This document shows, in pieces, positions 9,347 through 13,466 of a DNA stretch of 13,692 bases. Below the pieces are notes generated by a model. The model saw only the letters and a program-made list of their open reading frames with translations, did not search any database and was not told where the DNA came from. A program made the translations under genes and the position numbers. The first letter of the stretch is position 1. Every line of letters starts with the position of its first letter. The DNA comes from Candidatus Falkowbacteria bacterium (lineage in GTDB: Bacteria > Patescibacteriota > Patescibacteriia > UBA11705 > JABHMO01), in the NCBI GenBank assembly GCA_018665965.1, contig JABJBF010000023.1, positions 64,001 through 77,692 of the forward strand. Direction: 5' to 3'.

Positions 9347-10816
9347 ATGGAACAAAACGAAGAAGCAGTTCGCCTGCAAAAATTAGAAAAACTACAATCA
9401 ATGGGAGTAGAGCCTTATCCAGCTAAGTTTGACAAGAAACAGACTCTGGCTGAATGTAAAGAAATGAAGGAGGGCAAAAAAGTAAAGACTGCCGGTCGTT
9501 TAGTAATGTTTCGTGATATGGGCAAATTAACCTTTGCTCACTTAAGTGACTTTTCTGGTCGCATGCAAATTGCGTTCAAGCAAGATGATTTAGGTAAGGA
9601 TGATTATAAACAATTACAAAAAATAATTGATCTGGGTGATTTTATTGGAGTGGAAGGTGAGCTTTTTGTAACGCACAAAGGTGAACTAACTATCCTTGTT
9701 AATAAATGGACCTTTCTTGGTAAAGCTTTGAAACCATTACCTGAAAAATGGCATGGACTGAAAGATGTGGAAGCAACATACCGTCAGCGTTACTTGGATT
9801 TGATCTCCAATCCGGAAACCATGCAACGCTTTCAACTCCGTAGTAAATTTATCAGAGCTCTGCGGGAGTTTTATTGGCAAGAAGATTTTTTCGAAGTTGA
9901 GACTCCGACTTTACTGCATAGTGCCACTGGCGCGCATGCCAAACCTTACAAGACCCATAATAACGGTTTAGATATTGATGTGTTTCTTCGAATCTCACAT
10001 GAACTTCCATTGAAGCAATTGATCATTGGTGGTTATGATAAAATTTTTGAAATTGGCAAAGCATTCAGGAATGAAGGTATTGACCCATCACATTTACCAG
10101 AGCATACTCATTTAGAACATTATTGTGCTTATTGGGATTTTGAAGATAATATAAAATTCACTGAAAAGATGTTTGAATTTATTTTTAAGAAATTAAATTT
10201 ACCACATGAACTTGAAATTACCGGTAAGGATGGCAAAAAACGGAAAGTTAATTTCAAAACTCCGTGGAAGCGAGTGGACTTTATTGAGTTGGTAAAGAAA
10301 GATTGTGGGTTAGACGTTGCTAAGTATAAGAACCCAAAAGATTTAGTGAAAGATTTGAAAAAGAAGAAGATTCAAGTTGATGATATGGAGCATATGGGAC
10401 TGGCAACTTTGATTGATAACCTTTACAAAAAAGTTTCTCGACCAAAAATTATTGATCCAGTATTTTTATATCATTATCCAATTGAATTACAGCCCTTGGC
10501 GCGACGTAATGATGATGATTCAGAAATCGTTGACCAATTTCAGTTGGTTGTCGGTGGTTGGGAAATTGTCAAAGCTTATTCAGAGTTAGTTGACCCAATA
10601 GATCAAGAAAAACGATTCAAGGATCAGGCGAAACTTAAAAAATCTGGTGATGACGAAACCATGGAAGGTGATCCAGAATTTGTAGATTCAATGAAATACG
10701 GCATGCCACCAATTTCTGGTTGGGGAATGGGAATTGATCGAATTTTAACAATCCTGACTGAGCAAGATAATCTTCGTGATGTAGTTTTCTTTCCGTTGAT
10801 GAAACCAAAAGAATAA
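9347..10816 (+). CDS. lysS: Lysyl-tRNA synthetase, class II.
   Basis: 489 aa. The N-terminal OB-fold anticodon-binding domain is followed by a class II core with ...GKAFRNEGIDPSHLPEHT... (motif 2) and ...GMPPISGWGMGIDRILTIL (motif 3). Confidence 0.92.
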   Translation: MEQNEEAVRLQKLEKLQSMGVEPYPAKFDKKQTLAECKEMKEGKKVKTAGRLVMFRDMGKLTFAHLSDFSGRMQIAFKQDDLGKDDYKQLQKIIDLGDFIGVEGELFVTHKGELTILVNKWTFLGKALKPLPEKWHGLKDVEATYRQRYLDLISNPETMQRFQLRSKFIRALREFYWQEDFFEVETPTLLHSATGAHAKPYKTHNNGLDIDVFLRISHELPLKQLIIGGYDKIFEIGKAFRNEGIDPSHLPEHTHLEHYCAYWDFEDNIKFTEKMFEFIFKKLNLPHELEITGKDGKKRKVNFKTPWKRVDFIELVKKDCGLDVAKYKNPKDLVKDLKKKKIQVDDMEHMGLATLIDNLYKKVSRPKIIDPVFLYHYPIELQPLARRNDDDSEIVDQFQLVVGGWEIVKAYSELVDPIDQEKRFKDQAKLKKSGDDETMEGDPEFVDSMKYGMPPISGWGMGIDRILTILTEQDNLRDVVFFPLMKPKE

Positions 10817-10858
10817 ATATTACACAAATATTGTACAAATATTAAACAAATATTATTA
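10815..10858 (+). repeat. Four tandem copies of an 11-nt unit AAATATTnnnn immediately after the lysS stop.
   Basis: aaatattacac aaatattgtac aaatattaaac aaatattatta. Confidence 0.45.
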
Positions 10859-10861
10859 ATA

Positions 10862-10896
10862 AAAAACTCCGGTTCAATGTTGAGCACGGAGTTTTT
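10862..10896 (+). terminator. Palindromic intrinsic terminator for lysS, potentially bidirectional.
   Basis: aaaactccg - 15-nt loop - cggagttttt. An A-run precedes and a T-run follows, so it can terminate in either direction. Confidence 0.55.
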
Positions 10897-10902
10897 AGTT
10901 AG

Positions 10903-10935
10903 AAAAAAGCCCTAACCGATTGTCTGGTTAGGGCT
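10903..10935 (-). terminator. Intrinsic terminator oriented for minus-strand transcripts.
   Basis: Perfect 9-10 bp stem gccctaacc / ggttagggc with an 8-nt loop. AAAAAA precedes it on the plus strand, which is a U-run on the minus strand. Confidence 0.45.
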
Positions 10936-10985
10936 GTAGCGAAGCACACCTTCCGCTCGGGGCAGAGCGAGGAGGATTGTAAATC
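10903..10985 (-). ncRNA. Candidate small RNA of about 80 nt on the minus strand, with a CCUCCUC anti-SD motif, two GC hairpins and an intrinsic terminator.
   Basis: The minus-strand reading is ...tttact-17-tataat (plus-strand attata at 10987-10992), then uugauuuacaauCCUCCUCgcucugccccgagcg (hairpin), gaaggugugcuucgc (hairpin), and a terminator hairpin plus U-run. There is no ORF. This rests purely on structure and promoter logic. Confidence 0.25.
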
Positions 10986-11114
10986 AATTATAATATATGT
11001 AATGAAACAAGTAAAGTGAGATCACGTACCGAAATAAGGTCAAGAGCTTGGCAACATTTGTAGTGGAGTTAAATGTAATTAATTCTAGGATATAAATGTT
11101 CATAATTATTGTAT

Positions 11115-11245
11115 TTAGCCACCTGGCCCTGAAAGGGCCAGGCTAAGTTTTGTAAAGGCTACTAAAGTAGCCTGAAGAGACTTAGCCCCATTTATGGGGG
11201 TTTAGAATACAAATAGCCTGGGGTTTTCAACCCCAGGTGGCTAAG
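11115..11245. repeat. GC-rich nested inverted-repeat element with four hairpins and the GGCTAAG/CTTAGCC motif four times. It is a candidate structured ncRNA or riboswitch-like switch, or alternatively a MITE-like palindromic repeat.
   Basis: Hairpin A is 11115-11147 (ttagcc-ca-cctggccc-tgaaa-gggccagg-ctaag). Hairpin C is 11157-11172 (ggctac-taaa-gtagcc). Hairpin D is 11186-11199 (cccca-ttta-tgggg). Hairpin B is 11214-11245 (tagcctgggg-ttttcaa-ccccagg-tgg-ctaag). The 5' half of A (ttagccacctgg, 11115-11126) is perfectly complementary to the 3' half of B (ccaggtggctaa, 11233-11244). This gives mutually exclusive local and long-range folds. Confidence 0.4.
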
Positions 11246-11299
11246 TAGGCAAAATTTAACTCATTAATATTGCAAAGGTATTGAACCATTACGACGTAC

Positions 11300-11328
11300 T
11301 TGACAATTTAAGATTTATGTTATATACT
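11300..11328 (+). promoter_or_regulatory. Consensus sigma70 promoter TTGACA-17-TATACT for the zinc-ribbon gene.
   Basis: ttgaca is at 11300-11305, with a 17-nt spacer and tatact at 11323-11328. Alternatively TGn-TATATA (extended -10) at 11318-11326. Confidence 0.6.
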
Positions 11329-11371
11329 GTATTCTTCTAGTGACAGCTGTTAATTTAGTGGAGGTAATATC

Positions 11372-11581
11372 ATGAGTGTTGTAATTTGTCGGGACTGCGG
11401 GAAAAGCAAGTCTTTTTCTGCAATTGTCAGTGAGACTGGAGTGTGCAAGGATTGTGATGGGAAGCTGAGTGGTGAGAGAAGGACTCAGGCGCGCAATGCA
11501 GCGACATTCTCCACGTTCAAATTTGGCTCTGACAGAGAGAGGGAGGAAAGAATTGCTCATTTGGCCAGTATTGATCGCTAA
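11372..11581 (+). CDS. Small C4 zinc-ribbon protein of 69 aa (CxxC-x15-CxxC at the N-terminus, charged C-terminal tail). It resembles FmdB/zinc-ribbon-type putative regulators. GC-rich.
   Basis: SD GGAGG at 11360-11364 lies 7 nt before the ATG. MSVVICRDCGKSKSFSAIVSETGVCKDCDGKL.... A consensus promoter lies upstream and a strong terminator follows the stop. GC is about 48-50% against about 33% for the genome. The overlapping minus ORF at 11315-11674 and the + ORF at 11469-11657 are treated as artefacts. Confidence 0.6.
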   Translation: MSVVICRDCGKSKSFSAIVSETGVCKDCDGKLSGERRTQARNAATFSTFKFGSDREREERIAHLASIDR

Positions 11582-11611
11582 TAAGTATTTAGCTAGAAAT
11601 GATACACAAGA

Positions 11612-11642
11612 AGGCGCGAAACAATGTTTCGCGCCTTTTTTA
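11612..11642 (+). terminator. Strong rho-independent terminator.
   Basis: aggcgcgaaaca-a-tgtttcgcgcct is a perfect 12-nt inverted repeat (11612-11636) followed by TTTTTT. Confidence 0.7.
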
Positions 11643-11915
11643 GTACATTTTGAATAAAAATGCCCCAAATGCACTGTGCAAATGGGGCTCCTCCAGATTT
11701 AGGTGCAGCCATATAGGGATTGTTACTGAATACAGCTTCTACTGCAATTCTCAAATTTTAGCTATTATCTCCTAAAATTCTTTCAACAATATTAATACAT
11801 TGCCTCATGAATTTTTGAAGATTCTATCACAGGATTTTAGAGTTTCGTGACGAACCTGTTTTCTGTAACAAGCCCTTAAGGAGGACTGAGCAATATAGCA
11901 TACATTTTTGGTTTT

Positions 11916-11962
11916 GTCAACCTGTTGTTCTACAGCCATGCAGTATCGCATGGCAGGTTGAC
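11916..11962 (+). promoter_or_regulatory. Nested stem-loop just upstream of the putative serS promoter. An orphan AAGGAGG at 11877-11883 precedes it.
   Basis: gtcaacctg(9 bp)-ttgttctacag-ccatgc-agtatc-gcatgg-caggttgac. An overlapping second hairpin follows: accttg...caaggt (11961-11987). The element lies within a 560-nt ORF-free region. Confidence 0.3.
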
Positions 11963-11991
11963 CTTGAGTTGACCGAAAGGCCAAGGTTATT

Positions 11992-12020
11992 TTGCTAAAT
12001 TTTGTGATATTTAGTATAAT
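11992..12020 (+). promoter_or_regulatory. Candidate sigma70 promoter TTGCTA-17-TATAAT for serS.
   Basis: ttgcta is at 11992-11997, with a 17-nt spacer and tataat at 12015-12020. A second TATAAT lies at about 12127-12132, after a ccccttgggg palindrome. Confidence 0.45.
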
Positions 12021-12200
12021 AGTTCATATGAAAACACCTAATAAACAATACTAAATACCCAATTCTTACTGAAAATTATCGACTGGACATTTCATATTGT
12101 ATATTTTCCTATTTTTCCCCTTGGGGGTATAATATTTTTGATATTTTATAAATATCTCAACTCTTAACTTTATAAACTTTTTAACTTTTAACTAAATAAT

Positions 12201-13466
12201 ATGCTAGACATAAAATACATTCGTGAAAACAAGGAGCAGTTGAAACAAATTGCTCGACATAAAAATATTCAGGTTGATATTGATAAGCTTTTACAATTAG
12301 ATGAAAAACGTAGAAAGCTAACGCAACAACTTGAGGAATTACGCACTCGCAAGAATCAGGTTAGTAAACAAATTCCACAAATGCAGGAAAGTGAAAAACA
12401 ACAAGCGTTTGTTGAAATGAAGGAAGTTAGCGCACTGCAAGACGAGATTGAGGGCAAGTTAAAGCCACTTCTGACTGAATATGAAAATTTAATGTTGAGT
12501 GTTCCAATGTATATTCATGAAAATGTGCCAATTGGTGCAGATGAAAGTGGTAACATTGAAATTGAAAAGGTGGGTGAACCGACAAAGTTTGATTTTCCTC
12601 CCAAGGATCATATGACACTTGGTGCTGATCTGGATATTATTGACAATGAACGCGCTGTAAAAATTGGAGGTAGTCGATCTTACTTATTGAAAGGTGATGG
12701 CGCGCGATTGGAAGCCGCAGTTCTTAAATATGCAGAAGATTTCATTTCTCGCAAAGGTTATACTCTGATGAATGTACCAGTGATTGTTAATGAAGCTGCT
12801 ATGAGAGGCACTGGCTTTTTCCCTGGATCAGAGGATGAAACCTATCACCTGGAAAAAGATGACAAATATTTAGTTGGTACATCTGAAGTTGCTATTGGTT
12901 CATATCATGCTAATGAGATTTTAAAAGAAGAAGATTTACCACTTCGTTACGCCGGCTTTTCAGTTTGTTTTCGCCGTGAAGCAGGTTCTTATGGAAAAGA
13001 TACTCATGGTTTGTACAGAGTTCATCAGTTTATGAAGATTGAGCAGTTTGTTATTTGCAAAAATGATGAGAAGGTATCTATGGAAATGCATGCTGAATTA
13101 TTGAACAATTCAAAAGAGTTTATGCAAAGTCTAAAGTTACCATTCCGAGTTTTGAATATTTGTACTGGTGACATGGGACAAGGTAAATATTATATGAATG
13201 ATATTGAGACCTGGATGCCTAGTCGAGAGGGCTATGGTGAAACTCATAGTGCATCAGCTTTGCTGGACTTTCAATCACGTCGATTAAATCTTCGATATAA
13301 AGACAGTGAAGGTCAAATTCATTTTTGTCATACATTAAATAATACAGTTGTAGCTACACCAAGAGTTTTGATTCCGTTAATGGAAATTTATCAAACCAAG
13401 GATGGTAAAATTCAAGTTCCAGAAGTTCTTCAGCCGTATATTGATAATCAGCAGGAGATTGGTTAA
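12201..13466 (+). CDS. serS: Seryl-tRNA synthetase, class II.
   Basis: 421 aa. The N-terminal coiled-coil tRNA-binding arm (KEQLKQIARHK...LEELRTRKNQVSKQI) is followed by the catalytic core with ...FRREAGSYGKDTHGLYRVHQF (motif 2) and ...GETHSASA.... No T-box leader sequence was recognised upstream. Confidence 0.92.
   Translation: MLDIKYIRENKEQLKQIARHKNIQVDIDKLLQLDEKRRKLTQQLEELRTRKNQVSKQIPQMQESEKQQAFVEMKEVSALQDEIEGKLKPLLTEYENLMLSVPMYIHENVPIGADESGNIEIEKVGEPTKFDFPPKDHMTLGADLDIIDNERAVKIGGSRSYLLKGDGARLEAAVLKYAEDFISRKGYTLMNVPVIVNEAAMRGTGFFPGSEDETYHLEKDDKYLVGTSEVAIGSYHANEILKEEDLPLRYAGFSVCFRREAGSYGKDTHGLYRVHQFMKIEQFVICKNDEKVSMEMHAELLNNSKEFMQSLKLPFRVLNICTGDMGQGKYYMNDIETWMPSREGYGETHSASALLDFQSRRLNLRYKDSEGQIHFCHTLNNTVVATPRVLIPLMEIYQTKDGKIQVPEVLQPYIDNQQEIG

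Follow-up and report, generated by a model that had tools for sequence, protein, structure and literature searches.

Does the long spacer between lysS and serS in an uncultivated Patescibacteria (CPR) bacterium carry a small RNA gene on the strand opposite to its neighbors? The initial annotation had proposed one here, reading a promoter-like site, about 80 nt without an ORF, a single-stranded CCUCCUC stretch, two short GC hairpins and an intrinsic terminator as the canonical layout of a trans-acting bacterial sRNA. The window that we analyzed, meaning the whole 13,692-nt stretch of DNA, comes from a Kuenenbacteria-like member of this group. Its LysS is 87% identical to a protein of a Candidatus Kuenenbacteria MAG, with Parcubacteria and Falkowbacteria MAGs as the next matches, and no LysS closer than 87% was present in the protein collection searched. 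According to Pfam, the gene order is a class II aaRS (HisRS-like), mreB, mreC, mreD, PBP2, greA, two small ORFs, a PDDEXK_3 ORF, lysS (9347 to 10816), a 1385-nt spacer and serS (12201 to 13466). This spacer holds one ORF, which encodes a 69-aa zinc-ribbon protein (11372 to 11581) and splits the spacer into stretches of 555 and 619 nt. Over 34 kb of this compact genome, whose GC content is about 36%, both stretches rank among the top three intergenic gaps in length. All annotated genes, from the HisRS-like aaRS gene to 10 kb past serS, lie on the plus strand.

The elements of the candidate are given here in the order in which minus-strand transcription would meet them, followed by the terminator of lysS:

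11010 to 11015, minus strand: -35-like hexamer TTTACT, matching TTGACA at four of six positions in a consensus scan
10987 to 10992, minus strand: -10 hexamer TATAAT, after a 17-nt spacer, within the palindrome ATTATAAT (10987 to 10994)
10980, minus strand: predicted transcription start, an A seven nt downstream of the -10 hexamer, placed by promoter geometry
10969 to 10975, minus strand: CCUCCUC motif, in the 5' arm of hairpin 1
10949 to 10975, minus strand: hairpin 1, imperfect, CCUCCUCGCUC, UGCCCC loop and GAGCGGAAGG, -10.7 kcal/mol
10936 to 10948, minus strand: linker UGUGCUUCGCUAC, with an unpaired probability of about 0.8 to 0.96 except at two weakly paired bases
10908 to 10935, minus strand: T2 stem-loop, intrinsic terminator with 10 bp and an 8-nt loop, -17.4 kcal/mol
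10903 to 10908, minus strand: U6 tract of T2 and predicted 3' end, its first U closing the stem
10866 to 10896, plus strand: T1, the lysS terminator, with an A-tract before and a U-tract after it

The consensus scan recovered the promoter-like site where it had been annotated, with TTTACT-17-TATAAT (11015 to 10987, minus strand) matching 10 of 12 consensus positions, a score that the presumed promoters of serS and small ORF A share. The palindrome described at its -10 hexamer exists as the 8-nt ATTATAAT, although the nine-letter string originally given for it is one base off. The TATAAT has no TG extension, and the -35 hexamer is weaker than those of the three best promoters in the window, all of which carry TTGACA and two of which also have a TG extension. 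Promoter-like matches are enriched neither in the region (5, versus 3.4 ± 1.7 expected) nor in the whole window (62, versus 47 ± 7), and 7 of the 12 sites in the window that reach 10/12 are intragenic. Sites that match the consensus this well appear about as often as chance predicts, and TTTACT-17-TATAAT is a putative promoter of the candidate. Its predicted start at 10980 lies 5 nt before a GC island (0.60 at 10920 to 10979, versus 0.15 to 0.30 in the flanks). An overlapping second promoter-like site, ATTACA-16-TACAAT (11003 to 10976, minus strand, 9/12), would place the RNA start at about 10969, so that most of the CCUCCUC motif would be left out.

At the other end of the candidate, the near-perfect intrinsic terminator with a 10-bp stem and a U-run is present on the minus strand as described. 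T2 reads AGCCCUAACC-AGACAAUC-GGUUAGGGCU on this strand (10935 to 10908), with the U-run continuing to 10903, and its 3' tail is UUUUU(C), whereas GUAGCGAAGC comes after the hairpin when the plus strand is read. Because the U-tract, a U6, is found only on the minus strand, T2 terminates minus-strand transcription alone and is no backup for lysS. This rules out T2 as a second lysS terminator and sets aside the alternative that the initial annotation had itself raised, namely, that the hairpin at 10909 to 10935 acts only on lysS readthrough. T1, with its A-tract preceding and its U-tract following the hairpin, is bidirectional and is a second stop for minus-strand transcripts. T2 is among the four strongest terminator-like sites of the 13.7-kb window, and such sites are enriched in the region (4, versus 0.8 ± 0.9 expected). 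No annotated gene needs it, since from hisS to 10 kb beyond serS they are all on the other strand. The stretch upstream of it also agrees with the annotation, as no ORF of at least 20 aa occurs within 10903 to 10983 on either strand, and the predicted minus-strand RNA from 10980 to 10903 would be about 78 nt long. Between the lysS stop codon and T1, at 10815 to 10854, we also noted three to four tandem 11-nt units, AAATATTNNAC, with a period of approximately one helical turn.

With respect to structure, a folding energy of -30.6 kcal/mol was obtained for the 83-nt RNA of the minus strand, compared with -19.2 ± 2.9 kcal/mol for shuffled sequences (z of -3.94), and none of 200 shuffles folded as well. 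On this strand, hairpin 1 contains a C.A mismatch and a bulged U, and its UGCCCC loop has an unpaired probability of approximately 1.0. The CCUCCUC motif is found at 10969 to 10975, but instead of being single stranded, as had been proposed, it is paired with GAGCGGAAGG in both the MFE and the centroid folds. Its per-base unpaired probabilities are 0.11, 0.11, 0.14, 0.87, 0.37, 0.71 and 0.11; opening all of it would cost 3.9 kcal/mol, and opening CCUCC alone would cost 1.6 kcal/mol. In these models the motif is half-hidden, i.e., mostly paired and cheap to open, neither free nor locked. The two short GC hairpins originally described (CGCUC/GAGCG and GAAG/CUUC), together with a free motif, correspond to an alternative fold that is less stable than the MFE by about 1.5 kcal/mol. 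The window contains two copies of CCTCCTC, versus 0.81 expected, which is not significant, as two or more copies were present in 35 of 200 shuffles. Of the canonical sRNA layout, the promoter-like hexamers, the ORF-free, structured and GC-rich stretch and the strong terminator are retained, but a free CCUCCUC seed is not supported.

The initial annotation had further suggested that a CCUCC seed could occlude GGAGG ribosome-binding sites of genes in the window. Such sites were seen in the start-region check at the zinc-ribbon gene and small ORFs A and B, as it had stated, and also upstream of the 225-aa gene and mreB; SD-like GGAGG is absent before lysS, serS, PBP2, mreD and the HisRS-like gene. 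When duplex energies were calculated for the candidate against 16 start regions of the window and compared with those of shuffled candidates, pairing was no better than that of shuffled RNAs for 15 of them. The exception was the 225-aa gene, for which 2% of the shuffles were as good and which offers a 7-nt AUCCUCC:GGAGGAU pairing. Extended complementarity to any start region in the window was not found, only a generic SD match of 5 to 7 nt. With the motif mostly paired in cis, present at chance frequency and capable of generic pairing, occlusion of GGAGG sites is unsupported, and the second promoter-like site would even yield an RNA that lacks CCUCCUC. An anti-SD function of the RNA may be possible, but nothing speaks positively for it and we consider it improbable.

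Conservation was then a matter of whether relatives carry the CCUCCUC loop, and none does: no relative that we checked carries the element. Searches of the spacer by blastn and blastn-short against 78 species-representative lysS loci and 6 further relatives returned matches at noise level only. A single-sequence covariance model, R1, recovered the element itself and nothing else from 146 kb of CPR loci, as it did, with filters off, from 42 kb of the same genome. The same-species contigs that we fetched are 100% identical over the spacer and thus offer no support from covariation. A search for closer relatives through the neighboring zinc-ribbon gene gave only a 99% variant, on a contig of 929 bp that begins at 11341 and does not include the candidate. 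Rfam 15 families had no match at gathering thresholds anywhere in the window, and at E <= 10 the segments 10780 to 11400 and 11560 to 12210 produced weak, terminator-driven matches that included no SRP, 6S, csRNA or RsaE family. The best near-match was anti-hemB (RF02837), with 20.8 bits and an E value of 0.02, relative to a gathering score of 49.5. A tRNA/tmRNA scan found none. The metagenome pattern CCTCCTCGCTC-N4-8-GAGCGGAAGG gave 23 matches, all GC rich (0.52 to 0.74) and nonhomologous outside the pattern, a scan that carries little weight because the collection lacks the source contigs. Hairpin 1 had no match in viral contigs, where the one match to T2 (L118) was dismissed as a chance match to a bidirectional terminator, and blastn against phages and plasmids gave none. 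Readings of T2 and hairpin 1 as attC-like, SRP-like or tRNA-fragment sequences were dropped, their defining motifs being missing.

What relatives do share is the setting. In ten related loci, lysS and serS are still neighbors, separated by spacers of 75 nt to 2.2 kb in which neither blastn nor the single-sequence covariance model detected anything resembling the candidate. The two genes stay adjacent in L001-L005, L078 and L084-L089, and the spacer between them is a hotspot of small genes that differ from lineage to lineage. The L001 spacer has a plus-strand zinc-ribbon ORF that is positionally analogous to the 69-aa ORF of the window, L002, L003 and L088 carry a homologous minus-strand membrane-protein gene of 63 to 67 aa, and L004 and L078 carry other minus-strand genes. 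In L003, the lysS terminator is directly followed by a second hairpin, preceded by an A-tract and provided with a minus-strand U-tract, and this second hairpin ends the minus-strand gene for a 65-aa membrane protein. In a tblastn search for a relic gene, the minus-strand small proteins of the relatives did not match the spacer of the window (best E value of 0.25). As a separate observation on these spacers, a small hairpin of the form (U)CCCC-NNNN-GGGG(A) lies at 12113 to 12127, after the presumed promoter of serS and before its start, and recurs upstream of serS in L002, L003, L004, L085 and L088, where the surrounding sequence differs.

Considering these data, we tentatively favor, at somewhat less than even confidence, a species-specific orphan minus-strand unit in the lysS-serS spacer that would give rise to a terminator-ended small RNA of about 78 nt. 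In this scenario, the RNA, running from 10980 to 10903, would begin with an imperfect hairpin, continue through an open linker of 13 nt and end in a Rho-independent terminator. The hexamers, the ORF-free sequence, the stable fold and the strand-specific terminator are observed, whereas activity of the promoter, accumulation of the RNA and its function are inferred. A perfect TATAAT, the 17-nt spacing, a start placed just before the GC island and a fold with a z of -3.9 make such an sRNA gene plausible, whereas the chance-rate promoter, the weak -35 hexamer, the lack of a homologue in any of the collections searched and the lack of support from conservation or covariation weaken the case. If this RNA acted by base pairing, its always-open C-rich loop and its linker would be seed candidates at least as good as the half-sequestered CCUCCUC motif.

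The most serious rival, which we rate as rather unlikely, takes T2 to be a leftover or insulating terminator at a place where a minus-strand accessory gene of the relatives' type was lost or replaced, with no discrete functional RNA being made. T2, and perhaps hairpin 1, would then be remnants, possibly serving as a backstop against stray minus-strand transcription running antisense into lysS. It deserves to be taken seriously because L003 shares the layout, T1 then T2, in the service of the 65-aa membrane-protein gene, and because relatives carry minus-strand accessory genes, homologous in L002 and L088 and of other kinds in L004 and L078. The variation of spacer length among relatives, from 75 nt to 2.2 kb, and the absence of the element from every relative examined also fit such a history. 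However, the spacer retains no protein-level trace of the relatives' genes (the tblastn E value of 0.25 given above), hairpin 1 is a well-formed GC island, unlike decaying sequence, and a perfect -10 hexamer sits at exactly the right distance. A further alternative, to which we give a low probability, is that the structure belongs to the plus strand, both hairpins being part of a lysS read-through product or 3' untranslated region or forming the start of a longer plus-strand noncoding RNA that extends into 11110 to 11247, with GAGGAGG sequestered by CCUUCC. Thermodynamics favor this strand: the whole segment folds at -37.1 versus -30.6 kcal/mol, a difference of 6.5 kcal/mol, and hairpin 1 folds at -16.0 versus -10.7 kcal/mol. 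Both hairpins are more stable there because G.U pairs of the plus strand correspond to C.A mismatches in the minus-strand RNA, as with the U.G wobble in hairpin 1, and the neighboring 11110 to 11247 likewise prefers the plus strand (-75.6 kcal/mol, z of -8.3, versus -64.6 kcal/mol, z of -5.6). Yet the plus strand lacks a promoter-like site from T1 to 11300, a good terminator, T1, lies upstream, the U-tract of T2 is on the minus strand only, and no ORF follows GAGGAGG at a usable distance.

Slightly less probable still is mere chance, that is, an accidental promoter-like match beside an ordinary hairpin, the combination having no biological role. The counts of promoter-like sites and of CCTCCTC are at the level of shuffles and the element is known from a single species, as chance would predict, but the strength and strand specificity of T2, the GC island, the z-score of the fold and the enrichment of terminator-like sites in the spacer (4 versus 0.8) argue otherwise. 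Finally, a 39-aa minus-strand ORF (11103 to 10984) ends 48 nt before T2, and were it real, hairpin 1 and T2 would be its 3' untranslated region and terminator. We regard this as very unlikely. The ORF has no usable SD (an AGGUGG lies about 15 nt upstream), the promoter-like site upstream of it, at 11353, is only a 9/12 match, and gene callers left it uncalled on every contig. Its product has no Pfam match and no match at E <= 0.001 among 1.84 billion representative proteins, and its composition is that of a translation of AT-rich spacer.

How does the favored small RNA compare with known systems? C-rich-loop sRNAs of the Firmicutes, of the RsaE/RoxS type, are short and terminator ended and carry a C-rich unpaired stretch. 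The UGCCCC loop of the candidate could likewise pair with G-rich SD regions, but it is a single C-rich loop, it shows neither sequence similarity nor conservation, and the family is not listed by Rfam at E <= 10. The candidate also resembles anti-hemB (Burkholderia RNA 7, RF02837) in having a hairpin at the 5' end, one arm of which is C/U rich, and a terminator after it; membership was rejected, as 20.8 bits is far below 49.5, the score is largely terminator driven and the taxon is unrelated. The CiaR-dependent csRNAs of Streptococcus are small intergenic genes in which a promoter is followed by a terminator and which have two stem-loops and an SD-complementary sequence (PMC3091779). [quoted passage not shown] The candidate is similar in its promoter-like site, two stem-loops, SD-complementary motif and terminator. 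In contrast, its motif belongs to a stem, as the 5' arm of hairpin 1, with no CAU adjacent, its upstream sequence lacks the CiaR repeat TTTAAG-N5-TTTAAG, there is no Rfam match and the organism belongs to another phylum. We therefore rejected csRNA identity, whose defining features, a CiaR promoter and an unpaired anti-SD, are absent. The closest structural parallel in relatives is the convergent-gene terminator pair of L003, where the lysS terminator is also followed by a second hairpin with a minus-strand U-tract; theirs ends a minus-strand protein gene, whereas here about 78 ORF-free nt precede T2.

Text searches of a collection of papers found no work on base-pairing sRNAs in Patescibacteria/CPR. 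An sRNA, once verified in a genome this reduced and probably symbiotic, would mean that riboregulation persists there and would offer an entry point for its study. At present, one unconserved, motif-defined candidate provides a concrete locus for existing metatranscriptomes.

The candidate is not the only ORF-less minus-strand unit of the spacer. A second one, at 11650 to 11920, has the promoter TTGACA-17-TGcTATATT (11920 to 11892, 11/12), the second best in the window and one with a TG. Its RNA is predicted to start near 11886 with GUCCUCCUUAAGG and has a terminator at about 11690 to 11655, followed by a bidirectional terminator at 11611 to 11637. The RNA folds into a rod-like structure (-73.1 kcal/mol, z of -5.2) in which the 5' UCCUCC is paired to a 3' GGAGGA, and the unit has no Rfam match, 6S included. 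Since this second unit combines a very strong promoter with a terminator, minus-strand noncoding transcription in the spacer is plausible. Its fold also suggests that CCUCC and GGAGG in the spacer are simply the two arms of GC-rich stems and not seeds.

A more ambitious hypothesis, which we consider quite improbable, takes in the whole spacer. In this scenario, the 1.4-kb spacer is a species-specific island of three structured ORF-less RNAs, comprising the 78-nt unit, a 135-nt multibranch element at 11110 to 11247 and a 230-nt rod-like minus-strand RNA from 11886 to 11650. The two minus-strand RNAs would open with a 16S-like CCUCC and would switch between cis and mRNA-SD pairing, their CCUCC tracts binding either GGAGG/GGAAGG in cis or Shine-Dalgarno sites of mRNAs. 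If true, such switching would represent translational control not yet described in Patescibacteria.

Several further features of the surroundings were recorded. The element at 11110 to 11247 forms a very stable multibranch structure, in which the closing stem UUAGCCACC/GGUGGCUAA surrounds four inner hairpins, and its arms at 11112 to 11145 and 11214 to 11247 form inverted repeats that include a compensatory exchange, CCC<->GGG. It has no Rfam match, no match in viral contigs and no further copy in 34 kb of the genome. The 69-aa ORF at 11372 to 11581, a CxxC...CxxC zinc ribbon, is preceded by an SD and by a strong promoter, TTGACA-17-TATACT; it belongs to no Pfam family, and a word-indexed search gave a 99% variant only. 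The promoters of the 225-aa minus-strand gene (769 to 840) and of the second ORF-less unit (11866 to 11920) have a 35-nt stretch in common, at 77% identity, and an adjoining 20-nt segment, CCCTTAAGGAGGA, is inverted at the second site; this likeness is odd looking and at about chance level for the window. In the same genome, about 5 kb beyond the right end of the window (L114, 16752 to 18323), the 523-aa product of an alanine racemase gene has an extra 23S_rRNA_IVP (PF05635) match, which represents an unusual fusion.
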